Below are positions 3,762 through 60,197 of a stretch of DNA of 64,000 nt, piece after piece. Under the pieces are notes generated by a model. That model was not told the DNA's origin. It did no database searches and was given only the letters and a program-made list of their open reading frames with translations. Position numbers and translations under genes: made by a program. The stretch comes from an uncultured Candidatus Saccharibacteria bacterium (lineage in GTDB: Bacteria > Patescibacteriota > Saccharimonadia > UBA4664 > CAZOQX01): the NCBI GenBank assembly GCA_964582465.1, contig CAZOQX010000003.1:1115-65114 (forward strand). The letters are read 5' to 3'. Within the stretch, counting starts at the first letter, position 1, and every line of letters starts with the position of its first letter.

Positions 3762-4963
3762 TGGTTCACCACCGAATTATTTAAAGCACAGCTATTATAG
3801 ATGCCAGCGCCGTTTTGATCCGTAGACTGCGGTCCCACCTTGCAAACCGGAGAGGTACTGCTCCCCGAGAACAGGGCGTAATCAAATATACCAATCAGCT
3901 GCCCCGTCAGGGTTTTGGTCGCCACCACGCGTCGGCGGATGTCGCCCGACTGCCCTACTACGTCGATCACCAACTGCGACCCCGGAATTTGTAAATCTGG
4001 ACCGTTCGCGTAAATGCCATCCGATAGCAGCTTCACTTGGTAATCAACTGAATAGGCTTTGCCATTTACGTCCTGATCAGCCGTACTCACTAACCGAACG
4101 CGGAAAATATATCCACGGCTACGATTATTGGGCGTACCGCTGCTCGCGATTTGATACAAAACACAGCTATAATTCGCCACCGTCGTAGTGTCGAGCACGA
4201 CGGTATTTCCAGTCTGCGGCAACGTCGAAGGGCTCGGCGTCGTAGAGGTAAACTGGGTTTTTTCCACCTTCACATCCTGAGAAGTACTGCCGTTGAAAGA
4301 CACCGCTGTTAACTCGAAGGCGGCACTGGGGTCAACTGCCAATATTTTATCAACACCATTGACGCCGCTCGAGGAAGTGCGCGCCCAGCAGAAACGGAAA
4401 GCTGAATAATCCTGAAAGAGTTTGTACGCGCTGTTACAATCTGGCGGGTTCTGGCCGATTGTACCTGTAGCCGCCACAGTGGCGCTGCACTTACGTGTCA
4501 AATAACTGGTATCAAATTGTAGGCTTTGATCCTTCAACACCGAGCCAGCAAAATTAGCATTGGTGCTCGGATAAACCTTACGTTGGCGCCACGATACCAG
4601 CCCGGGCGGATCAGTCGCCGGTGGCTCCTTGGTAATGGTGTAGTTCGGCCAGTTTGAGCTGGTAGTATCGGGCAGCACGGCGTAGTCCCCTACCAGCGTG
4701 CCATTATCGTATTGATTCGGGAAAAGCGTCTGGAGCTGACTCGTCGGGTTCGCCACACCGTCCAAAGTTTTAAGAGCATCCTCAATGCCCGCCTCGGCCG
4801 CATAAAAGGCATCCTCCGAGCGATCAACTTGACTCGATTGATTCAGCTCATTAATCGTCAGCTTCGCCGCATAGCTAGTCGTTACCACCAATAAGATGGC
4901 AATAATTGACACCAGGTAAATGGCGATGGCGCCGCGCTCGTTAGTTTTAACTACTTGCTTCAT
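3758..4963 (-). CDS. PilX-N-like pilus-associated protein (pseudopilin-like N-terminus, large Thr/Ser/Asn-rich ectodomain)
   Basis: The N-terminus MKQVVKTNERGAIAIYLVSIIAILLVV resembles the PilX N-terminal ERG + hydrophobic helix and lacks Glu at +5. It is translationally coupled to the flanking minor-pilin gene. Confidence 0.6.
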   Translation of the reverse strand: MKQVVKTNERGAIAIYLVSIIAILLVVTTSYAAKLTINELNQSSQVDRSEDAFYAAEAGIEDALKTLDGVANPTSQLQTLFPNQYDNGTLVGDYAVLPDTTSSNWPNYTITKEPPATDPPGLVSWRQRKVYPSTNANFAGSVLKDQSLQFDTSYLTRKCSATVAATGTIGQNPPDCNSAYKLFQDYSAFRFCWARTSSSGVNGVDKILAVDPSAAFELTAVSFNGSTSQDVKVEKTQFTSTTPSPSTLPQTGNTVVLDTTTVANYSCVLYQIASSGTPNNRSRGYIFRVRLVSTADQDVNGKAYSVDYQVKLLSDGIYANGPDLQIPGSQLVIDVVGQSGDIRRRVVATKTLTGQLIGIFDYALFSGSSTSPVCKVGPQSTDQNGAGIYNSCALNNSVVNQ

Positions 4964-5472
4964 TATTTGCCCCTCAAGGTTGCAACTGTCGACAAGCTAT
5001 AGGCGTAGGCGTAGGGATCACTTGAGCTAACGCTCCCAGGTTGCTTCAGCCAAACTGCCATATCAACCTGAAGCGCCTCTTTGTCACCCGCTGGGGCTAG
5101 GTTTTGATAGCGCACCGCCTGAATAAATACTCCGTCGGTCACTGACACACCGTTTCTGAGGATGGCATTATTTGCAAAAGTATAATTCACGTCCGTCGCG
5201 GCTTGACCATTCAAGTTTTGGTTGTATTGCAAGGTTAGCGCAGTGGGACTGTTCACGGCGGCAGCCTTGGCGTTTCTAATGTCTCGCGCAATGCCCTCTA
5301 GTACATAGCGGCCGTTTTGCTGTACCGCTCGCTGCGTGGCACCCTTTTGCTGCAGCTTAGAGATCGAGGTGAAGGTCAGGCTGGCCGTAATCATAGCGGA
5401 TGATAAAAGTGCCATGCCAATCACCACTTCAACCAGAGTAATGCCATCTTCGCGCCTCACGACTGCGTCCAA
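4963..5472 (-). CDS. Minor pilin (prepilin-type N-terminal cleavage/methylation domain)
   Basis: N-terminus MDAVVRREDG|ITLVEVVIGMALL gives the G-x-T-L-x-E prepilin signature with Glu+5. 169 aa. Confidence 0.8.
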   Translation of the reverse strand: MDAVVRREDGITLVEVVIGMALLSSAMITASLTFTSISKLQQKGATQRAVQQNGRYVLEGIARDIRNAKAAAVNSPTALTLQYNQNLNGQAATDVNYTFANNAILRNGVSVTDGVFIQAVRYQNLAPAGDKEALQVDMAVWLKQPGSVSSSDPYAYAYSLSTVATLRGK

Positions 5473-6011
5473 TCGGTTAAAACGGTCCGCTCAATTACCT
5501 GCCTGGTACCGTTACTCTCCGTCCAGTTCACCTGCACCTGCACGTTTTTAGTATGAGAATCACCGTTGGCATCGCAGATTGTGAGCATACGGGAATAACT
5601 TGAATAAATCTGGCCAAAGTTGACACTATTACCATTAATGTCCAAGCTAGTGCCATCGAGTGCACCGGAACTGTAGGCGGTCGGACTAGCCACGGTCGCC
5701 TTACTCCAGCCACCTGGTCCGGCCACGCTCGGACGCATTATCCACTGGTGAGCTTGATCATTGGCGCAGCCGGTGATGCCATCCAAAAATGTGGCTGTAT
5801 CGCGTAGCTCACTATCACGGTAGGCTCGAAGCGCTTCCATCTCTCGATCAGCCAGTGCCACGGCCTGACTGCGCCGCCCCGCTTCTCCACTGGTTTTGGA
5901 TGATACACTCGCAAGCGCCGCGGCTGATGTGATCGACATCGCCATTAACGCCAGCGCTACCACTAGCTCGACCAAGGTTTGTCCAGATTGATTAGTCTTC
6001 AATGCCGCCAC
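5457..6011 (-). CDS. Minor pilin (prepilin-type N-terminal domain, PilV-like)
   Basis: N-terminus MAALKTNQSG|QTLVELVVALALMAM. 184 aa. Overlaps the downstream minor pilin by 16 nt. Confidence 0.8.
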   Translation of the reverse strand: MAALKTNQSGQTLVELVVALALMAMSITSAAALASVSSKTSGEAGRRSQAVALADREMEALRAYRDSELRDTATFLDGITGCANDQAHQWIMRPSVAGPGGWSKATVASPTAYSSGALDGTSLDINGNSVNFGQIYSSYSRMLTICDANGDSHTKNVQVQVNWTESNGTRQVIERTVLTDWTQS

Positions 6012-6017
6012 GAATTA

Positions 6018-6671
6018 TTACTTTACTGATACGTCAATCTTACCATTAGCGGGATAAAAAATCACTGTGCCGGTAAGTGCGACGTAATCAGCCGTTAGTG
6101 TAAATGTGACGTTTTGAGCGCCCGTATAGGGTTTGCCGGTAGAGGTTGTGACGGCCGCACACGGCGTACCGGAATCATCACAGCTAGTAAAACTCTTGCC
6201 GTCCGGGGCCAGAAATGCCAGCGATATGCTACTTGGCGCCGAGTTGCCGGCATTGTTTACGGCGATAGCCGAGATCTTGAGCCCCTCGGCGGTCAAGCTG
6301 GTCGAAGCGGCGAAAACTGGATCACTAATACCCGTCTGCTGAGTGTTATCGGTAGCAACCGACGTGTTTGTAAAATCACTGCCGTTTAATAGCATCGAAT
6401 CATACTTGTTCCCGGCCGAATTGTTATAAAAATTTAGGGCCGTCCCCCGCCAATAGCAGGGCGAGGTGGCACAGGTGCCAACTTGGCCAGTGTACGAATG
6501 CACCTGGGCCTGGCGAATGTCGTTCGCGAAGGCCTTGACCTCATCACTAAAACGCTCAGTTTTGATACTTGTCCCAGCTCCCCGGATTAAAACTAACGTC
6601 AACAATCCTATGATAGCCAGAGCCACCGTAGTTTCGATCAAAGTGTAGCCTTGTTTCCTAGGTAGTATCAT
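6018..6671 (-). CDS. Minor pilin (prepilin-type N-terminal domain, FimT/GspH-like)
   Basis: N-terminus MILPRKQG|YTLIETTVALAIIGLL. 217 aa. Confidence 0.8.
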   Translation of the reverse strand: MILPRKQGYTLIETTVALAIIGLLTLVLIRGAGTSIKTERFSDEVKAFANDIRQAQVHSYTGQVGTCATSPCYWRGTALNFYNNSAGNKYDSMLLNGSDFTNTSVATDNTQQTGISDPVFAASTSLTAEGLKISAIAVNNAGNSAPSSISLAFLAPDGKSFTSCDDSGTPCAAVTTSTGKPYTGAQNVTFTLTADYVALTGTVIFYPANGKIDVSVK

Positions 6672-6748: not shown

Positions 6749-7180
6749 CTATCTCACCGGGAATAAACCGGCGCCTTCGGTACAAACCGAAAGTTCGAAG
6801 TCACGATTATTGGCAGATTGAGCATAGAGTACTTCATATCTACTGGCATCAGTCGTAGCCGCACAGGCACCCGTCAAGTTTCCTGACGCAACATAAGTAC
6901 CAGCGGTAAAAGTATACTTGCCACCCAGCTTTGCGTCTAAGGTCGTCACGGCCGTTTTAGCAGCCGCATTGCTCGCAGGATAACTCGCGCCGTTATTAGC
7001 CGCATACTGATCAAGCAAGCCACCCATGCGGCCAGCCTCAGTCTTACGCGTAGTGTCACGTTGGGACTTCTGGGCACTGGCAATGGCGTTAAAGACCACC
7101 AGTATGATCAGGGCAGCGATGGCTAGCACGATCACTACTTCGATTAATGTAAACCCTTTAGATTTTTTCAATTCTCTCAC
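6749..7180 (-). CDS. pilA: Type IV major pilin-like protein, paralog 1
   Basis: N-terminus (V)RELKKSKG|FTLIEVVIVLAIAALIILVV with a short leader, Gly-1, Phe+1 and Glu+5. The small size (143 aa) and C-terminal Cys pair (C...C) are typical of T4a pilins. GTG start as listed. A TTG two codons later, preceded by GGTGAGAG, is an alternative. Confidence 0.85.
   Translation of the reverse strand: MRELKKSKGFTLIEVVIVLAIAALIILVVFNAIASAQKSQRDTTRKTEAGRMGGLLDQYAANNGASYPASNAAAKTAVTTLDAKLGGKYTFTAGTYVASGNLTGACAATTDASRYEVLYAQSANNRDFELSVCTEGAGLFPVR
7026..7161. repeat. Direct repeat copy A (pilin N-terminal coding segment)
   Basis: 136 bp matches 7556-7691 at an offset of 530 bp. I counted only 4 mismatches by eye. 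Confidence 0.85.
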
Positions 7181-7271: not shown

Positions 7272-7712
7272 TTATTTAACTTGGACTAGTCCGCCACCTT
7301 CTGTACAAACACTCAACTCGTAGTCGCGGTTCGTTGCTCCATTTGTGACATATAACACCTCATATATCGCAGCCGTTGTTGGGCTAGTAGCACAGGCACC
7401 GGTTAAGGCCCCATTGGCGACGTAGGTGCCTGCTGTAAAGGTGTACTTAGCACCTAGTTTAGAGTCAAGACCGGTTACAGCCGTCTTGGCTAAGGCAGTG
7501 GTAGATGGATATACACCAGAAGCATTAGACGCGGATTGTTCTAGTAGACTCACAATGCGGCCAGCCTCAGTCTTACGCGTAGTGTCACGTTGGGACTTCT
7601 GGGCACTGGCAATGGCGTTAAAGACCACTAGCAGGATCAGGGCAGCGATGGCTAACACGATCACTACTTCGATTAATGTAAACCCTTTAGCCTTATTTAG
7701 TTTCCGTAACAT
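7272..7712 (-). CDS. pilA: Type IV major pilin-like protein, paralog 2
   Basis: The listed ORF (7272-7784) has a 24-aa implausible extension. The ATG at 7712 gives MLRKLNKAKG|FTLIEVVIVLAIAALILLVV and is preceded by AAAGGTGAG. N-terminal 50 aa and the C-terminal motif (YEVLY...NRD-ELSVCTEG-GL) are shared with paralog 1. Confidence 0.85.
   Translation of the reverse strand: MLRKLNKAKGFTLIEVVIVLAIAALILLVVFNAIASAQKSQRDTTRKTEAGRIVSLLEQSASNASGVYPSTTALAKTAVTGLDSKLGAKYTFTAGTYVANGALTGACATSPTTAAIYEVLYVTNGATNRDYELSVCTEGGGLVQVK
7556..7691. repeat. Direct repeat copy B (pilin N-terminal coding segment)
   Basis: Partner of 7026-7161. Confidence 0.85.
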
Positions 7713-7790
7713 AATATTTGTGCTCACCTTTCTATTACTTATAGTGCTTACGTTTAATTTAAAGTCTTTCAGCTCAGTTGTCAACCTCCC

Positions 7791-9305: not shown

Positions 9306-9877
9306 TGCGTCCCTCCTGTAGTGCTAGCGGGCGGCGCCGCCTGATAGTAGGCTGTAATGTTTACGGCTGCCTGCACATTAGTACTCCCGGCACCATTAGG
9401 TGCCAAGTTGACGGATTGAACGTCAATATAGCGAGCAGCGTTTTCGAGTTTTTGCAATAAGCTTTGGACGCCGGCGTAAGATGCACTGATGGCTAGATTT
9501 ACGGGATAAGTAGCGACCCCTGTTGCTGCGCTGGCGGCGACACCACCCGGCGAAAACGTAGTCATTACCGCACTGCTTTTGGACGTCAAATCACTTACCA
9601 TCGCCACCAGCCTCTCCTCTTCGTTAGCTGTAGGTAGTAGGTGCAGAATTTGATCATGCTGATCTTTGACGGCGGCGTAATTTTGGCGCAGGGTCTGAGT
9701 ATCTTGATCCAGCTGCTTTAAGGCAGTGATTTTATTGTTGTAATCTGCGATCTGCTGCCCATCCTTCCCGGCTGTGTTTAAAATTGGCTTAATGATAAAG
9801 AAGCCAACTACGGCCGCAGTTGCAAGCCCAATCAATAAATACAGCCCGACTAGGTTCAGTAATTTGTGATCTTTCAT
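9302..9877 (-). CDS. pilO: PilO-like pilus alignment protein
   Basis: 191 aa with an N-terminal TM, a coiled-coil (KITALKQLDQDTQTLRQNYAAVKDQ) and a C-terminal ferredoxin-like region. Sits directly after pilN with overlapping stop/start. Confidence 0.65.
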   Translation of the reverse strand: MKDHKLLNLVGLYLLIGLATAAVVGFFIIKPILNTAGKDGQQIADYNNKITALKQLDQDTQTLRQNYAAVKDQHDQILHLLPTANEEERLVAMVSDLTSKSSAVMTTFSPGGVAASAATGVATYPVNLAISASYAGVQSLLQKLENAARYIDVQSVNLAPNGAGSTNVQAAVNITAYYQAAPPASTTGGTQ

Positions 9878-10476
9878 TTCGCCAAACCTCCGGTGGGATA
9901 AACATAGGTTGCGGAGAGCGAAAATGCCACGCGGGTTCCTTGGACGCTGGCTCCACTAAATGCTACGGAGTTAAAGTAGATTTGTCCTCCCGCATTCGCC
10001 ACACTGGTCGTACTTGGGTCGGGTGTTGGACTAGACTGCTTAAGCGCCGCGATGGCTGTGCCCACTTCATTGTAGGAACCAGCCGTGCCGGCAATGACAA
10101 CTTTCTCGCCATCGACATTAAGCGATTGCAGTGTGACCCCCTTCGGCAAAAGATCAGTCACCCGCTTAAAGATGGCCGAAAACTTATGTTGATTGCTAAA
10201 CAGCCCGTTCAATTCTTGTAGGCTAGCCTGGACAGCCAGGGCTTCTTTACGAAATGCGACGTTATCCGGTGAATTCACCTGAGCGTTGAGGGTGGTATAG
10301 CTATTTTTGGCCGAAGTCAGCCGCACTTTCTGGACGCCCAAGTACACGCCAGCAAGAACTGCCAAGCCCGCCACTAAAATTAGCCAGCCAACAATACTTG
10401 CCGTGGCTATCTTCTTAAACTTCTCCTCACGCTGACGGTTAAGGACTAAATCTGGTAGTAGGTTTACCTTGATCAT
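9874..10476 (-). CDS. pilN: PilN-like pilus alignment protein
   Basis: N-terminus MIKVNLLPDLVLNRQREEKFKK followed by a TM helix, which is the classic PilN INLLP signature. Confidence 0.75.
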   Translation of the reverse strand: MIKVNLLPDLVLNRQREEKFKKIATASIVGWLILVAGLAVLAGVYLGVQKVRLTSAKNSYTTLNAQVNSPDNVAFRKEALAVQASLQELNGLFSNQHKFSAIFKRVTDLLPKGVTLQSLNVDGEKVVIAGTAGSYNEVGTAIAALKQSSPTPDPSTTSVANAGGQIYFNSVAFSGASVQGTRVAFSLSATYVYPTGGLAK

Positions 10477-10520
10477 GGTTTATGCCTAAAGCTTACACTA
10501 TCCCGCTTATGCTAACAAGT

Positions 10521-13500
10521 TTAATTACTTGGTACCGCCTCATTCCACACCGCCGGAGCACTATTAAGAGTACTGAACCATGGCGGCGGGTTGCTCACCA
10601 CCGTGCCATCGTAGACGAAGTTCTCGGATGGGTTGATGTCAGGATCTAGTTGTGTGCCAGGCTGGCGCTGTAAGTTGAATGATGAGGCAATTATCAAACC
10701 GTTGAGTGTCAGCGGTTGGTCGACATTGACGCGATCATTGTTCCCCACTAAGCTGGTGCCCGAGCTAAATGCACCATTCGCAAAGTAGTTGCCGGCTAGA
10801 TTACTCACGCAATCGTCGGAATTGAAACACTTAACGATGATATTGCCGGTCACAATGAATCCAACTGACGTCTGCTGGCTGCGATCAGTACCGCTATAGC
10901 CGTTATAAGAGACATCACCGTTTACAATTAGATCGCCATTTACAACTATTGTGCCCGCTCCGCCTGCAAAACTGAGCGCGGTATGGGTAGCAGGATCGCC
11001 TAAGTTCAAATTACCATTAGCATAATAGGTTCTCCCGTTGGCGAGCGTAAAGGTGTCGTCCATCGTATAGTAATTTTGCCCGCTGACCTTAGTGAGGTTC
11101 GTGGCCTTCCCCACAATATTATTATTGTAATTGGTCTGCCCCCAGATGGCGTAAATCGGATTATTAGCATTGTCATACGTTCCCGAATTGCCGGTGTTGA
11201 GAGCGTAGGGGCTGAAGGCTTTTCCTTGACTAGGATGACCCGATACGCCTGGGCTGGTGAAGTCAAAGTGATTAATTAGTCCTTTGGTGTACAAGAACGC
11301 CGATTGCGCCAGGGAGTGCGCGAAGTAGCTATCGATCTTCCCGCCAGCGTAAACGTCGGAATTTTGGAAAGATATGGTCGGATTATAAATGGTAGCAACC
11401 CCGCGGTCGGGCTTGGCAGCACTATCCGATTCTATACCGTAAAGCACATTATCGGGCTTGGAGGCGCTCACGTCGCGCGATCCGAGGTCTCGGGTGTGTC
11501 CCTTAAAGGTACTCTCGTAGCGAGCGCGCTGGACGTTACTTGACCAACCCCAGTCGACATTGACTAAACCGTCCTTGGTGCCATCGTATGTTACGTCGCA
11601 TTCCCCATCGAAGTTAGCGGGACAATTGGCCGTATCTTCCTGAAGTAATTGGCCAGCGCCGGTGTAGTACTTGGTGTTGGCGGCACTCGCGGTCAGGTTA
11701 AAGAAACCGCCGGGCCAATAGGTTGCCGTCACATTTTGAGTGCCAGACTTGGTGTCATCAAAGCCCGTGATTACCGGCTCCACCACCTGCGTGTCATAAA
11801 TCATGCGATTCGTATAAAGCGGATCGGCGCGATCAAATGCCCAGCTTACTCCAGCGCCGTGAGCAAGCGGTGTCGAATCCCCCGAGTTATCCATCGTAGT
11901 AACGGTGGTCGAGTCCTGCCAATAAGTGGGGAGGTCGGCCGTTGCTGGGTCATTATCACCATCGGCCCAAGTCGGGTTGGTCTTGTTAAATCCCCCACCA
12001 AAGTAACTATCTTGGCCTAACACTTGACCTTGAATCGTGGCATTGGGATTCAGCCACCCCCACTTGGTCTCTCTTCTGCCCAAGTAGTAGGTAAAGTTGC
12101 TGACGATAAATTTATTGCTAATCTTTAGCGTCACGGTGGTACCAGCAGTCCCGTCGGCAGTTCCAGGGCTATAGGTGAAGCCGGCCGCGCCGCTGGCATT
12201 GGTTGCACCCCCCAACTTCACGCCGATCGGCGTGTCGTGAGCAGCAGCGTTTTTGGTTGGATACCAGTGGCCCTTGTCGTCTAGTTGCGACCAATTCACG
12301 TACTCATCCCACTTAAGCTGCGCATTATCGACGTGTGTAATGCCCGTAGTGTAGGTCAACGGTTCTTGGTTATTGGCCTTATATTTGAGTGTGCCGTTGT
12401 CCTGACTGTCCTGCAAAAGCGACGTCACAGTCGTAGTGCCCCACGATTTCAGTGGCAAATCACTTACACCCAAGCCGCCCTTCAAAATATTGTCTGGATC
12501 AAGCGTAAAGTTAGTCGGTACATCAGTATTGTCCGAATCAGCCTGATTGGTGAAGTTAGCATCGTTAATTGAGGCACTATACGTACTCGGGAAAAGTTGT
12601 GGATTTCGAACGTTATCCCAAGTGTTGGGCTTTGGCGAGTTATCGGCCTTAACTGGTCCAGCACTATTATCGGGCAATGACTGCCGCGGATCCGCTCCCT
12701 TATTGGTATCGCGCTGCAATAGATTTTTGTCGATGCCGCCCTGCCACTGAACGCCGTGGTCGCCCACCACTGAGACATCATCTGAGTTGTTAGCCGGCGA
12801 TTTAATTCCTTGGGCGTTAATATGGAGGTTAGAGATCTCGACAGCGTTGATGTGATTACTGCCGCCGCAGTCCCATACTTGTTTGCCGTCAGTATAAAAG
12901 TAGCTGCCGTCTTGGCAGGCGATGCCGCCGTGGCGGGGGTCAAAAGCATTGCTATCGCTGGTCGAGAAGTTCACGTCGCGAATGGGTTGCCACTTATTGC
13001 CACCAGGAGTGGACGAGCCGGACGTCACGGTGCCGTCGTTCTTCGGTACGTAAGCGAGCGGGATGCGCTGCAAGCAACCGGTGGCCGCAAACGAAGCCGG
13101 GCAACCAATCTCCGCCTTGTTATTAAAGACACTCATGCTGTTTAGGTCCGTATCGAGATTTTCGCTGGTGGTATTGGTATCCCCAAAAGCCGATCCCCAA
13201 GTACCAGCCAGCCAGAAGTTAGTCGAATGATCGTTGCCTTGGTATGTTCCTTGATCGGTTTTGCCGCGATTGCCCGCATCCGGCCACATGTAGGCCTGCA
13301 GGTTAAAGAGCGGATATTTAAAGTTATCGCGCACGAACTGTAAAACGGGGTGAATGAAGTTGGCTAAGTAGACTTTCGCTGGCGTGTTTAGAGATTTAAT
13401 GGTGATAGCGCAGGTGTCGCCGAATAGGTCATATACACCGGCCACGAGACTAGGCGTACCCATCTGGAAGGTTAGGCGATAGACGCCGGGGGTCGCTGGT

Positions 13501-14993
13501 GTTACATAGCTCGCATTCGAGAAAGTAGTAGTCTGATTGGGGCCGATAGGTGGACTATTAATCGACTGAGTCGTAGGTCCAGTTACAGGAGTGTCATCAG
13601 TACGAACTAGCTTATACGAGCTGGTCCAAGCCACATCGCCGGTATTCTTTAATGACTGGGTAATTTTTACAGTCGACCCCGGCGCGACAGGGTTCGGAAT
13701 AGAGCTTTGGATGCTTTGGCAGTTTGAGTTCTGGGAGCAAGTATCGTTGTAGGTTTCACTATCGTACGGGATCCAAATTTGCGGATCGTTATTGTAGCTA
13801 ATGTTGTGCCATACCCACATAAACTGCATACTATACGCCGCGGCAAAGTCTAGAGTTTTAGTTTCACCGTTGCCGCCAATAAATTCAGGGTATTTATCCG
13901 GATTCTGATCGGCAACTGCCGTCTTTACATCATAGCCCCGCCGATGAGCACTTCCCCCATTGAAAATATCTGGAGTTATCTTCCACGGCCCGGGACTAGT
14001 CCCGCCAACGTCGCGATAATATAAATCAAAGTAGATTTGTGGGTTAACCGGAGAAGAGTCGCTAGCCCCGTCCGCATCCTGCCACCTCAGCTCGTTATAA
14101 AGAATAGGATAAACCTCTTTTTGCGACAAGCAGGGGGTTGCAAACGGAATATAGAGGTCGTAGGTTCCACTCGTGTTGGTCGTATCAAGCGTGATAGGCT
14201 GATCACCTTTATCAAACCTCGCCCACAAGCCCACACGGTTCCCACCACAAGGGAAATTTTGATTTGCCCCCTGATTATTTACATCTTGTTGCATGCAACC
14301 ATCAGCTTGTGTCCCGGAGCTATAAGCTTGGATCCTGAAGTTCGCCCACCGGTCGTGACCAGGCTCAACGACCACACTGTCATCTGTGTTCATCGCCGAA
14401 ATATACCCAACTGCAAGTCGGTATACATAGTATCCGTTGCTCTTATTACTAGGCGATGATAAACATCCGCCATCGCCGTAGTTGTCAGAGTCGGTATCAA
14501 ACTTAATAGGGTCGCTCCACTGACCCGGGCTTGTAAAGAATACGGACCCTTGCTTGCCCTGAGAGATACATTTTTTGGCGTTATTATTATCGTCGAAGAT
14601 TTTGTAGGATTCGTCAGCGTTGGCGGGGGTAAAGAAAAATTTCATGCTTTTGAAATCTTGGTCAGAAGAACTTCCAGTACCTGTCCGAATTCTTATGTAG
14701 GTATTGTGGGGATCTTTGAAGTATAGCTTGATGTAAGATACGGGCGTATCGATAGCTCGACCTGTAGTGCCAGCATTGCATTGGTGGTTTGGATTGGTAA
14801 AGTAGCCTGAACATGCTTGGCTAACATCGACTTGAATATCGCCGTTCCCTCCATCGACTGTTTGATTCGGTAGAACATCATTTACTCTTACAAAGCTAAA
14901 GTCCGGGGCAGCCTGGGCTGGCTTAACCAAACTGAACAGGTTAACCGGCAGAAGCACCGCCAAAATAGTTAGCCACCTAATAAGCTTAGCCAT
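10521..14993 (-). CDS. Giant secreted protein (1490 aa), putative pilus-associated adhesin or surface protein
   Basis: Signal peptide MAKLIRWLTILAVLLPVNLFSLVKPAQA|AP. An Ig-like NBR1/CARDB-type segment lies around aa 425-535 (KITQSLKNTGDVAWTSSYKL...GVYRLTFQM). The body is Asn/Thr/Gly/Asp/Trp-rich. The C-terminus has beta-helix-like repeats (GTIVVNGDLIVNGDVSY, VGFIVTGNIIV, LTLNGLIIAS). Its stop is 44 bp upstream of pilN on the same strand. Confidence 0.8.
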   Translation of the reverse strand: MAKLIRWLTILAVLLPVNLFSLVKPAQAAPDFSFVRVNDVLPNQTVDGGNGDIQVDVSQACSGYFTNPNHQCNAGTTGRAIDTPVSYIKLYFKDPHNTYIRIRTGTGSSSDQDFKSMKFFFTPANADESYKIFDDNNNAKKCISQGKQGSVFFTSPGQWSDPIKFDTDSDNYGDGGCLSSPSNKSNGYYVYRLAVGYISAMNTDDSVVVEPGHDRWANFRIQAYSSGTQADGCMQQDVNNQGANQNFPCGGNRVGLWARFDKGDQPITLDTTNTSGTYDLYIPFATPCLSQKEVYPILYNELRWQDADGASDSSPVNPQIYFDLYYRDVGGTSPGPWKITPDIFNGGSAHRRGYDVKTAVADQNPDKYPEFIGGNGETKTLDFAAAYSMQFMWVWHNISYNNDPQIWIPYDSETYNDTCSQNSNCQSIQSSIPNPVAPGSTVKITQSLKNTGDVAWTSSYKLVRTDDTPVTGPTTQSINSPPIGPNQTTTFSNASYVTPATPGVYRLTFQMGTPSLVAGVYDLFGDTCAITIKSLNTPAKVYLANFIHPVLQFVRDNFKYPLFNLQAYMWPDAGNRGKTDQGTYQGNDHSTNFWLAGTWGSAFGDTNTTSENLDTDLNSMSVFNNKAEIGCPASFAATGCLQRIPLAYVPKNDGTVTSGSSTPGGNKWQPIRDVNFSTSDSNAFDPRHGGIACQDGSYFYTDGKQVWDCGGSNHINAVEISNLHINAQGIKSPANNSDDVSVVGDHGVQWQGGIDKNLLQRDTNKGADPRQSLPDNSAGPVKADNSPKPNTWDNVRNPQLFPSTYSASINDANFTNQADSDNTDVPTNFTLDPDNILKGGLGVSDLPLKSWGTTTVTSLLQDSQDNGTLKYKANNQEPLTYTTGITHVDNAQLKWDEYVNWSQLDDKGHWYPTKNAAAHDTPIGVKLGGATNASGAAGFTYSPGTADGTAGTTVTLKISNKFIVSNFTYYLGRRETKWGWLNPNATIQGQVLGQDSYFGGGFNKTNPTWADGDNDPATADLPTYWQDSTTVTTMDNSGDSTPLAHGAGVSWAFDRADPLYTNRMIYDTQVVEPVITGFDDTKSGTQNVTATYWPGGFFNLTASAANTKYYTGAGQLLQEDTANCPANFDGECDVTYDGTKDGLVNVDWGWSSNVQRARYESTFKGHTRDLGSRDVSASKPDNVLYGIESDSAAKPDRGVATIYNPTISFQNSDVYAGGKIDSYFAHSLAQSAFLYTKGLINHFDFTSPGVSGHPSQGKAFSPYALNTGNSGTYDNANNPIYAIWGQTNYNNNIVGKATNLTKVSGQNYYTMDDTFTLANGRTYYANGNLNLGDPATHTALSFAGGAGTIVVNGDLIVNGDVSYNGYSGTDRSQQTSVGFIVTGNIIVKCFNSDDCVSNLAGNYFANGAFSSGTSLVGNNDRVNVDQPLTLNGLIIASSFNLQRQPGTQLDPDINPSENFVYDGTVVSNPPPWFSTLNSAPAVWNEAVPSN

Positions 14994-15074
14994 TAGAGTT
15001 ATTGTATGAGCTTATCCACTACCAGTCAAACCCCTTAAGCTTATTGACATCATGACTGCTCCGGTAGACTATTA

Positions 15075-15707
15075 ATGTTAATGGCTAAGCGCAAAAGGAA
15101 AATGACCAGACTACTCCCATCGCTCGGCAAGCTCTCTAACCTTTCTTTCGTAGCGATCGTATGTGGCGTGGTGACTTTTGGAATACTTGCCTACTACGTG
15201 GTACACGCGCTCTCTTATCACAGAATCGGCATACTACAAGAACACGGCCAAACTTTTTACTACACCAACCCCACAACCGGCCACGTAACTGCTGAAAAAG
15301 TTATTCATCCTGATCAAGGTGATGGCGGTAAACTGTCATGTAGCAATACTTGCTGGCTCTCGGCTAAAGCAAGTTCAACCTTCCAAGACGCCTGGACTGG
15401 TCCAGGGTTTCACGTAGCGTCCAGCGGCGTAAACTCAACTAACAAGAATCAACGCGCGTGCTTTGTTATTCGGGTTGCTCCAGGTGCATCCTCAGCAATA
15501 GCAGGAATATCCGTCGATGGGACACCAGTAGGACAATCTACATCTGTTACAAAAGATTTCAAGTGTTATTGGCTGAACTACACAGTCAAAGCAGGCCAGA
15601 CCGGCCTCAGCTGGACCATCCATGTTCAGTCTGGGCAAGTTCAGATTGACCGTGTAGAACTGTGGCAGGGCGGTGCTAGTGGCAAGAGTGTTTTTGTAGA
15701 ACTGTAG
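15075..15707 (+). CDS. Membrane-anchored or secreted beta-sandwich-like protein, tandem paralog 1
   Basis: 210 aa with an N-terminal basic stretch plus TM/signal anchor (LSFVAIVCGVVTFGILAYYVV). The C-terminal 124 aa are identical to paralog 2 and end in a CBM/galactose-binding-like ...VQIDRVELWQG. No confident family assignment. Confidence 0.7.
   Translation: MLMAKRKRKMTRLLPSLGKLSNLSFVAIVCGVVTFGILAYYVVHALSYHRIGILQEHGQTFYYTNPTTGHVTAEKVIHPDQGDGGKLSCSNTCWLSAKASSTFQDAWTGPGFHVASSGVNSTNKNQRACFVIRVAPGASSAIAGISVDGTPVGQSTSVTKDFKCYWLNYTVKAGQTGLSWTIHVQSGQVQIDRVELWQGGASGKSVFVEL
15334..15701 (+). repeat. Perfect 368-bp direct repeat, copy A (3' part of paralog 1)
   Basis: Base-for-base identical by my reading to 15958-16325 (offset 624 bp). 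Flanks diverge immediately at both ends. Confidence 0.9.
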
Positions 15708-15755
15708 CTTGCTTTTGCCGTAAACATGTGATACAGTTGCATTCAACTAAACACT

Positions 15756-16334
15756 ATGTTGAAGTTTCGTTTTTCTATACTAACAGTCTACCTGGCCAGC
15801 ATAATTGCTGGCTTCTTAGCTTGGAGCTTCCCTGCCCAGGCTATTACGTATCACAAAGTCTCCACTCTCCAGGAACACTCAACTTTCTCTTATACAAATG
15901 ATGGGAAAACGATTAAAGAGAAGGTTCAGCATCCTGACTGGAGGGACGGCGGGCACATGTCATGTAGCAATACTTGCTGGCTCTCGGCTAAAGCAAGTTC
16001 AACCTTCCAAGACGCCTGGACTGGTCCAGGGTTTCACGTAGCGTCCAGCGGCGTAAACTCAACTAACAAGAATCAACGCGCGTGCTTTGTTATTCGGGTT
16101 GCTCCAGGTGCATCCTCAGCAATAGCAGGAATATCCGTCGATGGGACACCAGTAGGACAATCTACATCTGTTACAAAAGATTTCAAGTGTTATTGGCTGA
16201 ACTACACAGTCAAAGCAGGCCAGACCGGCCTCAGCTGGACCATCCATGTTCAGTCTGGGCAAGTTCAGATTGACCGTGTAGAACTGTGGCAGGGCGGTGC
16301 TAGTGGCAAGAGTGTTTTTGTAGAATTACAGTAA
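15756..16334 (+). CDS. Secreted beta-sandwich-like protein, tandem paralog 2
   Basis: 192 aa with signal peptide MLKFRFSILTVYLASIIAGFLAWSFPAQA|I. The C-terminal 124 aa are identical to paralog 1. Confidence 0.7.
   Translation: MLKFRFSILTVYLASIIAGFLAWSFPAQAITYHKVSTLQEHSTFSYTNDGKTIKEKVQHPDWRDGGHMSCSNTCWLSAKASSTFQDAWTGPGFHVASSGVNSTNKNQRACFVIRVAPGASSAIAGISVDGTPVGQSTSVTKDFKCYWLNYTVKAGQTGLSWTIHVQSGQVQIDRVELWQGGASGKSVFVELQ
15958..16325 (+). repeat. Perfect 368-bp direct repeat, copy B (3' part of paralog 2)
   Basis: Partner of 15334-15701. Confidence 0.9.
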
Positions 16335-16335
16335 A

Positions 16336-17490
16336 CTAAACCACTACCTCTTTAGGCCTGTCGCGCAAATTATAATCCGAACTCATCACATAGCCGTAGG
16401 CGCCGGCGTTCAGTATTGCTAAAATCTCTCCTTCTTTCGGCATGGTAAGCTCCCGCTCCTGGGCCAATAAATCGCCAGACTCACACACATTCCCAGCTAC
16501 ATACACCACCGCCTGCTCGCCCTCTACTCTACTTGCATTCATAATTTGGTGATATGAGCCGTACATGGCCGGTCGAATTAAATGATTAAAGCCCGTGTTT
16601 ACGCCTACAAATGTGCGATCCGGGTTCTTTTTTATATCCGTCACTTTGGTGAGCAAAAAGCCGGTCTCGGCCACCAAATAACGCCCGGGCTCGAGCCGCA
16701 TTGCAACCGGCGAGCCATACTCCCGCGTAAATTTCGCCATCAGCTCGCTCGCCTGCTTACCGAATTCGGCTACGTCCAGGGGTTGCTCGCTAGGTCGATA
16801 CGGCACGCCCAAACCGCCGCCAAAATCTAAATACTTCAACCCCTCAAACCCCCGTGCCGTTTCGAGTAATACACTCATGGCGTGAATTAGAATAGCGACA
16901 TCTAACACGTTCGATCCAATGTGCTGATGCAAGCCCACGATCTTTAGGCCGTGTTTTTTCGCGATTGCTTTGGCCTCGTCGAGCTGCGAAATATCAATCC
17001 CAAATTTACTAGCCGGGCCGCCGGTAATCACATGAGCGTGGTGACCGGCCCCAATTCCTTGGTTAACCCGAATCCCCACTTCCTTTCCCAGCCCTAAGCT
17101 TCCCCACTTTTCCAGCTGGCCAAGCGAATCGAGGTTTACGGCCATTCCCTGCTCGGCCAACCATGCGAGCTCGCTCGCATCAATATTGCTACAGGTAAAT
17201 ACCAGGCGGTCAGTCGTAAAACCGGCCGCCTTTGCCCGCTCGACTTCGCCGGGACTGACGCATTCGGCACTAGCCCCTAGTTCACGAAGTTGCTTTAAAA
17301 CTTCCAAATTAGAATTAGCCTTAACCGCAAAATGGATCTGTGCCGGTTGATAAGAAATCGCCTGCTCGAGCGTCTGGTAGCGCTCCTTGATTGTCTCTAA
17401 CTCATAAACATAGAGCGGCGTGCCGTATTTTGTCGCGAGCTTGGTCGCCAGGTCCCCGCTGATATCGAGTTTATTGTCGCGTACCTGCAT
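16336..17490 (-). CDS. lysA: Diaminopimelate decarboxylase (PLP-dependent, Orn/DAP/Arg decarboxylase family 2)
   Basis: FAVKANSNLEVLK (PLP lysine), HQHIGSNV, EPGRYLVAETG and CESGD motifs. 384 aa. Related family-2 decarboxylases cannot be excluded without a search. Confidence 0.8.
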   Translation of the reverse strand: MQVRDNKLDISGDLATKLATKYGTPLYVYELETIKERYQTLEQAISYQPAQIHFAVKANSNLEVLKQLRELGASAECVSPGEVERAKAAGFTTDRLVFTCSNIDASELAWLAEQGMAVNLDSLGQLEKWGSLGLGKEVGIRVNQGIGAGHHAHVITGGPASKFGIDISQLDEAKAIAKKHGLKIVGLHQHIGSNVLDVAILIHAMSVLLETARGFEGLKYLDFGGGLGVPYRPSEQPLDVAEFGKQASELMAKFTREYGSPVAMRLEPGRYLVAETGFLLTKVTDIKKNPDRTFVGVNTGFNHLIRPAMYGSYHQIMNASRVEGEQAVVYVAGNVCESGDLLAQERELTMPKEGEILAILNAGAYGYVMSSDYNLRDRPKEVVV

Positions 17491-17522
17491 TCCCCGATTA
17501 TAAAGGAAGAGCGCTAGGCCGG

Positions 17523-18383
17523 CTAATAAACGTCGACGGCAATATGAATGTGGTCGCGGTGATCAGCTTCCGTGGCCGGGTCATAGTGATGAGGCACACC
17601 TTGGTCGAGATTAAGGGGCGAGTTCCAGTAGATTAGCTCATCCACATGATACTCGGCGCGATGATTAAAGACGTAAGGCATGATCGAGACATGCTGCTCC
17701 TGGTTGGCAATATCAACCGCTAGACCGCGGTAATGGAAGCTATTTGTCACATGATGACCATTAGTGAGGTACGCTATCACAATCGGAATGCCACGATTTG
17801 CCATGTCGTTCACGAGTTTGAGCAAGTCCGCGCTCACACGCACGCATTGGCCAGTGGCTTCCACGGGTGCACACTCCCCCCGTGCCACTCGCTGCATAAT
17901 ACCTACCGTCTGCGGCTGAATCGAAATGTGCGGATTCTGCAAAATTAGCTGGGCGTAATAGGCGGCATTATTTACAGGTTGCGTTAAGCTCGCACAACTC
18001 TTGCCCTGGGTGCGGTAAATGGCACACCAAGTGTTGAGGTTAGCAACGCCAATGTTTGCCGCACTTTGCCCCAGTGGCTTGTTACCTAGCCCGCGGTGAT
18101 TGGGATCAAGCTGGTAATAAATCAGAGCTGATTTGGTTGGCCAATCGAAGTAGCCATTAATTTTGAGCGCCTGCCTGGCAGCAAAGGATACGCTTCCGGA
18201 ATTCTTGAGGTGCCACTGTAAATTCTTCACGCAGACGCCTGTGCTGTTCATGCTAAGCACTGGCTTAACGGGACAGGCAAAGGGATCTTGGCCAGTCGCA
18301 TGCGCTGGGGCAACTGCAATAAGCGGCATCACTACCGCAACCAGCGCTACTATAATTTTTGCAAACTTCAACTTCATAGCCAA
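17523..18383 (-). CDS. Secreted peptidoglycan hydrolase: PG-binding-like domain + LAS/M15-type zinc peptidase domain
   Basis: Signal peptide (...PLIAVAPAHA|T). PG_binding_1-like segment (NLQWHLKN...INGYFDWPTKSALIYYQ). C-terminal SFHYRGLAVDI ... DHRDHIHIAV matches the H-x(n)-D...H-x-H zinc ligand pattern of M15/LAS peptidases. Confidence 0.7.
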   Translation of the reverse strand: MAMKLKFAKIIVALVAVVMPLIAVAPAHATGQDPFACPVKPVLSMNSTGVCVKNLQWHLKNSGSVSFAARQALKINGYFDWPTKSALIYYQLDPNHRGLGNKPLGQSAANIGVANLNTWCAIYRTQGKSCASLTQPVNNAAYYAQLILQNPHISIQPQTVGIMQRVARGECAPVEATGQCVRVSADLLKLVNDMANRGIPIVIAYLTNGHHVTNSFHYRGLAVDIANQEQHVSIMPYVFNHRAEYHVDELIYWNSPLNLDQGVPHHYDPATEADHRDHIHIAVDVY

Positions 18384-18512
18384 AACTGGCTGCCCGAGGG
18401 CAGCTCACTTAATTTACGTGAACTTTAACATTTTTTGGGCTTAGTGTCAACATAACTACTCTCTTAGGCTAGCAATCACCGCTTCAGTTGATAAATGCCG
18501 GACACTTGGGGC

Positions 18513-18547
18513 ACAAACAAAAAGTTAAGCCCCGAAGGGCCTAACTT
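18513..18547 (-). terminator. Rho-independent terminator after the 18565-18966 gene
   Basis: Minus strand reads AAGTTAGGCCC-ttcg-GGGCTTAACTT followed by TTTGTTTG. Confidence 0.7.
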
Positions 18548-18564
18548 GGTGAGGTGGTTTTGGT

Positions 18565-18966
18565 CTACTGGCTAATCGGACCGAGGCCTTGCAGCAAATG
18601 CTGGCGTACCTGTAGATGCTGATCAAATTGGCTCAGCCGCTCCTTGATCTGGCTATCGCTTAGGCCCTTGCCCCTAAGCTTAGATGTCAGATCATCTCGA
18701 AGCTTCTGGTGGAATTGATCAAGCGTCATTCCATGCTCCTGCACAATTTGCTGAAGAGTTTTGGTCTTCAGCTCACTCCGCAGGTCAGCTGGCTTCACGC
18801 CTAGCACACTGGCTACTCCATCAAGCGGATGCCGATGCATTTGCCGCATCGAAGTCATCCCAGGATGTGCAGGCCGGTTTGAGCTCGCGAAAGAGCTCGC
18901 TCCCACCATAGCCGCAGCTCCAACTAAGATCCCGCCGGCCATTAAAGCAATTTTTTGTTTAACCAC
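18565..18966 (-). CDS. Small secreted helical protein, unknown function
   Basis: 133 aa with a signal peptide (ALMAGGILVGAAAMVGASSFASS). The rest is helical and charged (LDQFHQKLRDDLTSKLRGKGLSDSQIKERLSQFDQHLQ). Confidence 0.6.
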   Translation of the reverse strand: MVKQKIALMAGGILVGAAAMVGASSFASSNRPAHPGMTSMRQMHRHPLDGVASVLGVKPADLRSELKTKTLQQIVQEHGMTLDQFHQKLRDDLTSKLRGKGLSDSQIKERLSQFDQHLQVRQHLLQGLGPISQ

Positions 18967-23765: not shown

Positions 23766-24371
23766 TTAGTTGTCCTTCGTAAACCGATCGACAACTTTTT
23801 TGATACTTTCGTAAGTAAACCCTTTGCGCCCCAAGTGCGCCATTAGCTTTTGACGATCGGGGTACTTGACCATCAGTTTTTGGCGCTCAACTAGATCTGC
23901 CAAGACTTCTTCCTCATCATGTCCCCCCAGCGCCTCTTCAATCTCGTCAGTTCCCAGGCCTTTTTGGCGCAATTCCTGCACAAGCTGTAAACGCGAGCGT
24001 GGGCGCAGCAGACGGCGGCTTTCTACCCAGCTTGCAGCAAAATCGCTATCGTTCAGGAGGCTCCGTGCCACCAGCTCACGGACAATGTCGGCTGTTTGCT
24101 CCTTTGAATAGCCCTTTCTCTCGAGGTATTGCAGCACCTCATCTTGACTGCGTGGCCGAATGGCAAGATACGATAGCGCCTTTTCCAAAGCCTTGTTCTT
24201 TTCGGCCGCTGACTTAAAGCGTTCAAGTTCCTCAGCGCCAACTTCACTCCCCTCACGCAGACCACTGTCCGCCAGAAACAAAGCGGAGCAAGCAAACGAG
24301 TATTTACCGTCCACGAAGATTGAATAGCGTTCGCGGGCCGCTTGCTTCTTGATCTTGGTAATTTGCGGCAT
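23766..24371 (-). CDS. recX: Recombination regulator RecX
   Basis: 201 aa of three-helix repeats (ALSYLAIRPRSQDEVLQYLERKGYS..., LNDSDFAASWVESR). Immediately downstream of recA. Confidence 0.88.
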   Translation of the reverse strand: MPQITKIKKQAARERYSIFVDGKYSFACSALFLADSGLREGSEVGAEELERFKSAAEKNKALEKALSYLAIRPRSQDEVLQYLERKGYSKEQTADIVRELVARSLLNDSDFAASWVESRRLLRPRSRLQLVQELRQKGLGTDEIEEALGGHDEEEVLADLVERQKLMVKYPDRQKLMAHLGRKGFTYESIKKVVDRFTKDN

Positions 24372-24373
24372 TA

Positions 24374-25402
24374 CTAAGTAGTTTGGGCTTTTTTGCGTAC
24401 GGCGCCTGCAAGTTCTTCCAGGATCTTGGGATTATCCTTCAGATATTGCTTGGCCGCCTCGCGTCCTTGGGCGATCTTCTCTTCTTTGTACTCGTACCAA
24501 GCGCCTGTTTTTTGCACTAACTCGTGCTTAACCGCCAGATCGAGCACATCACCAGCGCGCGAGATGCCCTCGTTAAACATAATGTCGAACTCGGCCACCT
24601 TGAAAGGCGGTGCGACCTTATTTTTAACTACCTTGACCTTTACGTGATTCCCTACTGGCGTATCAGCGTCCTTAATTTGCTCGGTACGGCGGATGTCCAA
24701 ACGCACCGAAGCATAGAATTTCAAAGCGTTACCGCCGGGCGTAGTTTCCGGATTGCCGAACATAACGCCGATCTTCATGCGCAGCTGGTTGATGAAAATG
24801 ACAGTAGTTTTGGACTTGCTGATGACTCCAGTGAGTTTGCGTAAAGCTTGAGACATTAGCCGCGCCTGCAGACCCACGTGCGCATCGCCCATGTCGCCCT
24901 CAATTTCAGCCCGGGGCACCAAGGCTGCGACAGAATCAATAATCACGACATCAACAGCGTTTGAGCGCACCAAAGTTTCGGCGATTTCTAAAGCCTGCTC
25001 GCCTGTATCGGGCTGCGAGATTAGCAGATCGTCGAGATTAACCCCAATTCTTTTAGCGTACTCGGGATCCAGAGCGTGCTCTGCATCCACAAAAGCCGCC
25101 ATGCCGCCCGATTTCTGGGTGCTTGCTACCACATGCAGCGCCAGCGTGGTTTTTCCGCTCGATTCCGGCCCATAAATTTCGATAATTCGGCCCTTCGGTA
25201 TACCTCCACCGAGAGCGAGATCCAGCGACAAACTACCCGTAGGAATAGTTTCGACATCAATTTTGTGCGACTCGCCCAGGCGCATAATAGCGCCCTTACC
25301 AAATTGCTTTTCGATTTGCTCGACCGCAAGACCAATCGCTTGCATGCGCGAGGATCTATCGCCCTTTTGTTCCACGATTTTCTCCGCTACTGCTGTTGCC
25401 AT
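24374..25402 (-). CDS. recA: Recombinase RecA
   Basis: [20 protein letters not shown] Walker [10 protein letters not shown], and L1/L2 loop region. Confidence 0.98.
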
Positions 25403-56835: not shown

Positions 56836-58138
56836 CTGGGCCTCGCTTGATTGCCCTGGCAGCCTCAGCCATCTCGTCCCACGGCCGTTTTTCCTTTCCG
56901 TGCAGAATATTTGATTCATGCCCCTTACCGAGCAGCAGAATCGTATCGTCTTTTTTAGCTAAATCGACCGCCTTTTTGATCGCTTTAGAGCGGTCATGCA
57001 CCAGGAAAAGATCCTGGTCAAGCTTTTTGCCAGCCTTCTTCGCGCCCGCCGCGATTTCGTCCATAATCACCAAGCCATCCTCGGTCCGATCATCCTCTTC
57101 CGTGATCACCACGATATCACACCACTTCCCCGCTACCTCGCCCTGCATCGGCCGCTTAGCGTGGTCGCGCTCACCGGCGCTACCGAATACCACAATCAGG
57201 CGCCCTTTGGTCACCGGTTTAATTTCGGCAAAGACCTTTTCAAACGACTCGGGCGTGTGGGCATAATCCACAATCAAGGTAAAATCCTGGCCCAAATCAA
57301 CCGTGTTCATTCGTCCCTCGACGCTTTTTACGCCAACAATCCCGTCTTCAATTTGCTTGTCGCTTAGTTTAAGCGCGATGCCGACTCCAATCGCCGCCAA
57401 AGCATTTAGCACGTTAAAGCTGCCGGGCAAATTCAGCCACAAATTCAATGTCCGGTCCCTATAACTGGCCGTAAAACCACTGCCGCCCGCCTCGGCAGTA
57501 ATATTAGACCCTCGCAATTCCCCTTTGGAAATCCCATACGTCAACGGTTTAGGTACCACCCCAGCGAACAAATCCGCACTAGGGTCTTCGGCATTCACCA
57601 CTCCCACACCTGAACTGTGAGGATTTTGGGCCACCCGTTTAAACAGTCGCAGCTTCGCATCACGGTAACGTTCAAAAGAGCCGTGATAATCCAGATGCTC
57701 ATGCGTCACATTTGTCATCACAGCCAGCGAATAACGAATCCCCCACAGCCGACCCTGAGCCAGAGCATGGCTGGTCGTTTCAATAATGATCCAATCAAGC
57801 TGGTGGGCCCGGGCTTGCTTCAAAATCTTCACTAGCGGAAAAGCCTGGATCGCCGTCATCCGAGTCGGATTTGGCCGCAGCCCATCTCCCACATCCACGG
57901 AAACGGTCGTCACCAACCCAACCTTAAACCCCGCCGCTTTCAGCATGCTATGAATTAAGGTGCTGGTCGTGGTTTTGCCGTCTGTACCAGTTACACCGAT
58001 AATTTTCAATTTTCGCGCCGGAAAGCCACCGAGCAGCTGCGCGAGCATCATTTCGCCGGTGTGCCCCCACGGCTCAATTAATTTGAACAGCCGCTTCGGA
58101 ATAAAGAACTTTACTAATCTGCGAAATTTTTCTTCCAT
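56828..58138 (-). CDS. murE: Mur ligase, MurE-like (UDP-MurNAc-L-Ala-D-Glu:2,6-diaminopimelate ligase), short N-terminus
   Basis: IIGVTGTDGKTTTSTL P-loop, DYAHTPESFEKVF and FGSAGERDHAKRPMQGEVA motifs. At 436 aa it lacks most of the usual MurE N-terminal domain. Confidence 0.75.
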   Translation of the reverse strand: MEEKFRRLVKFFIPKRLFKLIEPWGHTGEMMLAQLLGGFPARKLKIIGVTGTDGKTTTSTLIHSMLKAAGFKVGLVTTVSVDVGDGLRPNPTRMTAIQAFPLVKILKQARAHQLDWIIIETTSHALAQGRLWGIRYSLAVMTNVTHEHLDYHGSFERYRDAKLRLFKRVAQNPHSSGVGVVNAEDPSADLFAGVVPKPLTYGISKGELRGSNITAEAGGSGFTASYRDRTLNLWLNLPGSFNVLNALAAIGVGIALKLSDKQIEDGIVGVKSVEGRMNTVDLGQDFTLIVDYAHTPESFEKVFAEIKPVTKGRLIVVFGSAGERDHAKRPMQGEVAGKWCDIVVITEEDDRTEDGLVIMDEIAAGAKKAGKKLDQDLFLVHDRSKAIKKAVDLAKKDDTILLLGKGHESNILHGKEKRPWDEMAEAARAIKRGPGE

Positions 58139-60143: not shown

Positions 60144-60197
60144 AAGGTTATTGTAGCTGAACTTGGTGACCAAAGGCGAGCCCGTTAAAATAGAGGC

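Follow-up and report, generated by a model that had tools for sequence, protein, structure and literature searches.

Probable gene conversion within a single domain of two tandem exported paralogs from an uncultured Saccharibacteria bacterium

Paralogous genes of bacteria can evolve in concert, as the tufA/tufB pair and the ribosomal RNA operons do, and gene conversion also underlies the pilin-type antigenic variation of Neisseria, in the pilE/pilS system. RecA-dependent exchange between such copies needs tens of bases of near-identity. Prokaryotic cases of gene conversion and concerted evolution are surveyed in PMC6053082, and PMC12046097 describes gene conversion among paralogs of Mycobacterium tuberculosis. 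We analyzed a 64,000-nucleotide stretch of DNA (the window) from an uncultured Candidatus Saccharibacteria bacterium (contig CAZOQX010000003.1), in which two tandem genes for small, predicted exported proteins, paralog A (15075..15707, plus strand) and paralog B (15756..16334, plus strand), share an exact repeat of 368 bp at their 3' ends next to strongly diverged 5' parts. Non-reciprocal, interlocus gene conversion between anciently duplicated tandem paralogs is the best explanation of this mosaic, and we regard it as likely. The mechanism would be the known, ordinary concerted evolution of bacterial paralogs. Like the described cases, the locus has, within one genome, a sharp tract that is identical even at synonymous sites beside old divergence; RecA is present, and the tandem arrangement favors exchange. 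It differs only in that the homogenized segment is part of one domain, and that domain belongs to an orphan exported family rather than to dosage-sensitive core genes.

Both genes are intact. The open reading frame (ORF) of A encodes 210 amino acids (aa), and the NCBI protein, P0002, has 208 aa from the ATG at 15081; the ORF of B encodes 192 aa and equals P0001. A direct scan found that 15334..15701 in A and 15958..16325 in B, both on the plus strand, form a direct repeat of 368 bp with 0 mismatches at an offset of 624, and a repeat finder concurred. This result bears out the base-for-base identity reported in a first-pass annotation of the stretch. The first copy holds 122 whole codons, SCSNTC...SVFVE, and the second matches it exactly. 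At offset 624 the tract is a single maximal exact run; apart from it, just one run reaches 8 nucleotides (nt) or more, at 15306-15313. Each 20-mer of the tract occurs twice in the 64-kb window and never on the opposite strand, and a family profile searched against all six frames of the window gave no third copy of the A/B family.

The identity ends abruptly on both sides, near MSCSN and near the first stop codon, as had been described. At the 5' edge the first mismatch, C in A and A in B, falls at 15333, where the Leu/Met codon preceding SCSN begins. Past 15701, at the 3' edge, A continues with CTG TAG and B with TTA CAG TAA, and there is no similarity beyond. The number of identical C-terminal residues is 123 (S88-L210 of A) and not the 124 given by the first-pass annotation, whose upstream peptides for both copies agree with the translations. 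Three stretches flank the repeat, namely the sequence before A, the 48-bp spacer (15708..15755, plus strand) with the 5' half of B, and the sequence after B, and they are mutually unrelated. Taken by itself, the spacer has no resemblance to the sequence before A or to that after B. Nor do the two signal peptides, or the sequences that precede A and B, show any relation at the nucleotide level. The repeat finder returned no inverted repeats at the A/B locus.

In A, the diverged 5' segment (15075..15333, plus strand) would encode the export signal plus ~42 residues at the start of the mature domain; in B (15756..15957, plus strand) it would encode the export signal plus ~39 such residues. A codon alignment of the mature N-terminal parts covered the 39 alignable codons directly upstream of the tract. 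Over these codons, A and B shared 58% nucleotide identity and 54% amino acid identity. The proportion of differing synonymous sites (pS) was 0.81, past the Jukes-Cantor range and hence saturated, and the nonsynonymous divergence (dN) was 0.41. Residues common to both 5' parts (LQEH, HPD, DGG) are written with different codons in A and B. The tract contained ~87 synonymous sites with 0 differences, an outcome with P ~1e-62 at the upstream pS, which rules out chance. Because synonymous sites are saturated upstream and unchanged in the tract, the two parts of the genes have very different ages. Identity in the tract is far above that of the adjacent homologous sequence, synonymous sites included. 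Recent or ongoing gene conversion, as the first-pass annotation had proposed, is the best explanation of this contrast.

The boundary of identity was located with an alignment of A, B and two relatives from database searches, P0004 and P0006, which are described below. In this four-sequence alignment the domain starts at YH[KR]V..QE and extends over ~165 residues, and 34 columns are invariant. The identity boundary is at residue 68/69 of B, after the invariant HP..GG motif. Invariant columns before the boundary are Y32, Q39, E40, V57, H59, P60, G65 and G66, and those after it include W88, G90, P91, Q107, C110, F111 and V112, and further on I172, D173, L177, Q179, G180 and G181. Because invariant columns flank the boundary on both sides, it lies inside the domain. 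The mature protein thus appears to be one domain of ~165 residues, with the conversion boundary cutting through it. The earlier view that conversion homogenizes a domain does not hold, since the boundary falls inside a single domain, and domain shuffling as the cause of the mosaic was rejected for the same reason. Every invariant residue of the diverged 5' part (Y, QE, V.HP and GG) is kept in both A and B, which argues that both copies are functional.

Based on these results, an ancient duplication would have given rise to A and B as tandem paralogs, probably transcribed together, and each would encode a small exported protein with a single ~165-residue domain. RecA-type homologous recombination would recently have copied the 3' 368 bp of one paralog onto the other, in either direction. 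On its 3' side the tract would stop where homology between the paralogs runs out, at the stop codons, beyond which there is nothing to pair. The 5' edge would lie where A and B had diverged too far for strand exchange, because ~58% identity is far below the requirement of RecA-dependent exchange. Such a boundary would be self-reinforcing, with the 3' three quarters of the domain being re-homogenized and the signal peptide and first ~40 mature residues escaping and diverging. We infer both this recombination mechanism and its recurrence from the pattern in the sequence.

The homologous-recombination machinery needed for conversion is present in the window at 23766-25402. It comprises recA (24374..25402, minus strand; PF00154, E 1.6e-141) and, beside it, recX (23766-24371). 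A second mosaic tract was found 8 kb away in the tandem pilin genes at 6749-7180 and 7272-7784 (minus strand), where 7026-7161 and 7555-7690 match over 136 nt with 4 mismatches. The match covers codons ~9-51, third positions included, and the rest of the two genes has a third-position identity of 20-40%. The pilin segment, too, was probably formed by gene conversion, as the second such tract of the window, and it supports recurrent conversion activity in this genome. With two examples, intragenomic recombination may be actively shaping exported proteins of this organism.

Several points weigh against conversion or qualify its description. Neither genome contigs nor metagenome contigs yielded a relative of the locus or the organism in which a grouping of 3' parts by genome and of 5' parts by ortholog could be looked for. 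If a few single-nucleotide polymorphisms (SNPs) that separate the copies were merged during assembly, the repeat would be slightly less exact than it looks. With 4 sequences, the fold models reach a pLDDT of 59 and 66, a low confidence, which leaves the label 'CBM-like' (CBM, carbohydrate-binding module) tentative. Finally, a recent whole-gene duplication with replacement of a 5' end would yield the same mosaic.

This last scenario is the main rival, and we consider it improbable. Here the whole gene would have been duplicated recently in tandem, after which the 5' end of one copy was replaced, either by exchange with a diverged allele from a different strain or species or through unequal crossing-over in a formerly larger array. 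An identical 3' part beside a saturated 5' part would result, and the unrelated upstream regions and signal peptides of A and B would fit an imported 5' cassette. However, two events are needed, more than for conversion, together with a donor from a family that is nearly absent from 15 billion proteins. The spacer and downstream flanks also carry no trace of a duplicated unit past the stop codon, and the pilin pair shows that intragenomic conversion tracts form in this genome.

An assembly artefact, which the first-pass annotation had named as its alternative, is very unlikely. One gene, or two strain alleles, would have been strung in tandem; in a milder version, two similar copies would have been made identical by bubble-popping or polishing. 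The assembly is of the metagenome type, from a lineage seen once. An exact repeat of 368 bp is longer than the usual k-mer sizes, so the assembler had to resolve a path through it. The organism's Logan contigs in run SRR9179560 are short pieces of ~2 kb, and full-length A and B proteins are on no Logan contig, which is also consistent with contigs breaking at the repeat. The Logan pipeline uses k = 31, and a de Bruijn contig stops k-1 nt into a sequence that has two different continuations in the reads. Logan contig SRR9179560_849186 (L044, 2347 bp, run SRR9179560), which was recovered through the decarboxylase neighbor of B and covers the downstream side of B, equals 16296-18642 of the window exactly. 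Its end at 16296 therefore lies exactly 30 nt inside the second copy of the tract, which ends at 16325. For contigs of ~2 kb, the chance of a stop at exactly this distance is ~1 in 1000 to 2000, of the order of 1e-3. A stop k-1 = 30 nt into the repeat means that the read graph branches at the tract boundary, as expected with two 3' continuations in the reads, and a spurious duplication of the tract is unlikely.

The junctions gave the same answer. All four are unique and mutually unrelated, so the spacer and the 5' half of B can be placed only between two tract copies, whereas two alleles of one locus would share flanks. A and B are both in frame with the family-invariant residues, and the 136-nt pilin repeat keeps its 4 mismatches in this same assembly. 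The artefact alternative is weakened by the position at which L044, an independent contig, ends; what is left of it is a collapse of a few SNPs, which would not alter the conclusion. The break position of a Logan contig may be used in this way as a cheap check on whether a repeat is real. Since the repeat breaks short-read graphs, such genes would be systematically fragmented in k-mer assemblies. No repeat in the window accounts for the far end of L044, at 18642.

Identity kept by purifying selection, or made by programmed diversification through a diversity-generating retroelement or a cassette switch, is extremely unlikely, with the selection and retroelement readings effectively refuted: the layout, with a constant and a variable part, is superficially like that of variable surface-protein systems and the C-terminal tract encodes most of the conserved fold, but protein-level constraint does not freeze ~87 synonymous sites and so cannot explain the tract, retroelement template and variable repeats differ at adenines whereas the two copies here show 0 differences and both lie in full ORFs, none of the window ORFs scanned contained a reverse transcriptase, invertase or integrase, and the locus has two copies only and no inverted repeats. 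The ORFs scanned were those of at least 120 aa, most of them, and they contained no reverse transcriptase, transposase or integrase. A role as target of a diversity-generating retroelement was accordingly rejected, the repeats being identical and the RVT domain being absent from these ORFs. Mobile-element and inverted-repeat explanations were rejected by the repeat and ORF-domain scans of the window.

The likeness to pilin cassette variation is superficial. As in Neisseria pilE/pilS, a shared constant segment provides homology, a variable segment differs, and A and B stand beside pilus genes. Unlike that system, A and B are just two copies, both full-length and apparently expressible. No silent cassettes, guanine-quadruplex (G4) element or initiator element came up, although no search was aimed at them. 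The variable parts of A and B are anciently diverged and not shuffled, and the two proteins carry no N_methyl motif and are not pilins.

The A/B family is very rare and uncharacterized. Pfam and NCBIfam gave no family for A or B at E <= 1 or 0.1, the PDB sequence search gave nothing better than E 0.9, and by sequence no described CBM family in these three resources matched. A word-indexed search of 5.8 billion clustered proteins returned only A and B themselves; with the alignment as query, the same type of search returned A, B and P0006 only. An exhaustive HMMER scan of 1.84 billion representatives yielded two real but distant relatives, P0006 and P0004. P0006 has 237 aa and shows the A/B architecture over its full length. 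P0004, a larger surface-type protein by our label, has 594 aa and carries the A/B domain as a C-terminal module behind PQQ/SBBP-type beta-propeller repeats. The domain family was thus found in three lineages among ~15 billion proteins.

The other HMMER matches, P0003, P0005, P0007 and P0008, are multi-repeat cadherin-, Ig- or Fn3-like proteins and were not counted as relatives. P0003, the strongest of these, reached 91 bits and a whole-protein E of 5.6e-21, spread over four near-identical cadherin repeats at ~23 bits each. Residues 86-173 of the paralogs matched each of the four repeats with ~35% identity over ~95 residues. This alignment runs across a cadherin domain boundary and depends on the strings DGTPVG and AGQTG, which are absent from P0004 and P0006. 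We judged the match to be chance similarity multiplied by repeats.

Searches with neighboring genes showed the same sparse sampling. Among ~15 billion proteins, RecA, EF-P, the decarboxylase, the giant secreted protein described below, A and B each form a singleton at 90% identity, and all six are on one 66,623-bp NCBI contig. This lineage has apparently been sampled a single time. A search of genome contigs with the A/B alignment as query found no relatives. The decarboxylase had only distant matches in genome contigs, at <=53% identity, with the best, at 52-53%, in metagenome-assembled genomes of the candidate phyla radiation; none of the matched decarboxylase-carrying contigs had A/B paralogs. 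The four-sequence alignment retrieved nothing from metagenome contigs, and a search of phage DNA gave no match.

The fold was predicted with AlphaFold (AF2) from the four sequences only. The precursor model was all-beta, with a predicted local distance difference test score (pLDDT) of 59 and a predicted template-modeling score (pTM) of 0.55. The model of the mature domain was all-beta with ~12 strands, a pLDDT of 66 and a pTM of 0.65. Its least confident loop, mature residues 30-43, is the HP..GG / CSNTC region where the identity begins, and the conversion boundary would fall in this low-confidence loop, between strands 3 and 4. Structural matches of these low-confidence models were CBM22, CBM15, CBM35, CBM6, CBM36 and a porphyran-binding CBM, and also domain III of Cry toxin and the receptor-binding domain of iota toxin Ib. 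The beta-jelly-roll CBMs (CBM4/6/15/22/29/35/36), Cry domain III and the receptor-binding domain of binary-toxin Ib share a galactose-binding-domain-like fold.

The A/B domain resembles these modules in being predicted as an all-beta sandwich of ~12 strands, in belonging to a putatively exported protein, and in standing as a C-terminal module in P0004. It differs from them in matching no Pfam, NCBIfam or PDB entry by sequence, in a structural-alignment identity of only 5-13% for low-confidence models, and in having no catalytic partner domain. Its invariant residues (Y, QE, HP, GG, W.GP, Q..CFV, IDR..L.QGG) form no known CBM motif. The domain is probably a CBM-like beta-jelly-roll or beta-sandwich, although the label is tentative, and it may have a ligand-binding role. 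The beta-sandwich, CBM-like assignment of the first-pass annotation is therefore favored by the all-beta, CBM-like models, but at pLDDT 59-66 it stays provisional.

Both proteins are predicted to be exported and cleaved. The N-terminus of A has a long basic n-region (KRKRK...), a hydrophobic stretch of ~21 aa and the sequence VHA|LSYH before the domain. The N-terminus of B consists of MLKFR, an 18-aa hydrophobic core and AQA|ITYH before the domain, and looks like a textbook Sec-type signal. By inspection of the aligned N-termini, both have a basic n-region, an h-region and small residues at -3 and -1. The putative cleavage sites, V-H-A|LSYH in A and A-Q-A|ITYH in B, coincide in the alignment, and both obey the -3/-1 rule. 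Relative to B, A has a longer basic n-region and a longer h-region, and it may be cleaved less efficiently. A contrast between a transmembrane anchor in one protein and a cleavable signal in the other, as previously suggested, is unsupported given the aligned -3/-1 cleavage motif in both, and so is the idea that one form stays tethered to the membrane and the other is released. The 48-bp spacer that separates A from B showed no terminator-like site, so the two probably share a transcript.

A more elaborate functional picture can be drawn, which we consider doubtful. A and B would be two forms within one system, built on a new family of glycan- or surface-binding domains, in a possibly host-attached bacterium. 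Recurrent conversion would keep the beta-sandwich core identical, and the N-terminal ~40 residues and export signal would vary specificity or localization (e.g., tethered versus released), with a tie to the pilus and the giant adhesin-like protein. The phenomenon of gene conversion is in itself ordinary, and what is mildly notable is how rare the protein family is, together with the confirmation that the read graph gives. The locus offers a clean, well-bounded case in which part of one protein domain was apparently converted, from a lineage sampled once. The ~165-residue domain family, nearly absent from public data, could be a new binding module.

The surroundings of A and B are those of an ordinary chromosome. 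The gene of the giant secreted protein (10521..14993, minus strand; 1490 aa) is divergent from A and heads a type IV pilus operon. The intergenic region between it and A (14994..15074) has 81 bp and contains a minus-strand promoter-like site at 15029-15001. The sole Pfam match of the giant protein is an Ig-like (N_BRCA1_IG) domain at residues 436-527, and the scan of metagenome contigs found no relatives of this singleton. A further Logan contig of run SRR9179560, L045, matches 9775-11701 of the window with its positions 23-1949, and its first 22 nt do not match the window; the mismatch points to a variant or graph branch in the giant-protein gene near 11701. The operon, on the minus strand, encodes PilM, a peptidyl-prolyl isomerase (PPIase)-like protein, five N_methyl pilins, PilC, PilO and PilN.

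A and B do not look like type IV pilus components, as the Pfam search found no N_methyl or Pil domain in either and the linkage to pilus genes is not conserved. The contig with P0006 (L001, actinobacterium-like) has an extracytoplasmic function (ECF) sigma factor, an Lsr2-like gene and an integrase nearby and no pilus genes at the P0006 locus. Because of this locus, and because P0004 is a beta-propeller fusion, pilus adjacency is not conserved in the family. The divergent arrangement of A and B with the giant pilus-linked gene is as the first-pass annotation described, but the surface-interaction link drawn from it relies on adjacency in one genome. On L001, 25 bp upstream of P0006, a gene at 4577-6145 encodes a secreted Ser/Gly-rich protein of 522 aa, which may be a partner of the A/B domain family. 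Its sequence contains long (S-G-x) repeats and stretches rich in His and in Cys, and Pfam gave no match for it.

On the other side, a diaminopimelate/ornithine decarboxylase-family gene (16336..17490, minus strand) is convergent with B, with 1 nt between the ORFs. It is followed at 17523-18383 (minus strand) by a gene for a 286-aa protein with a signal peptide and weak peptidoglycan-binding and Hedgehog N-terminal (LAS zinc-peptidase-like) matches below the Pfam thresholds. Its product may be a secreted cell-wall hydrolase. Further genes of the window encode YchF, EF-P, SSB, S6, RecX, RecA, FtsK, RNase J, PNPase, PolA and sigma-70, followed by primase, GroEL, a Mur ligase, two FemAB proteins and a class I tRNA ligase. 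The two FemAB-family genes, which share no repeated 20-mer, form another tandem paralog pair at 58138-59229 and 59175-60305 (minus strand), adjacent and slightly overlapping, beside the Mur ligase gene.

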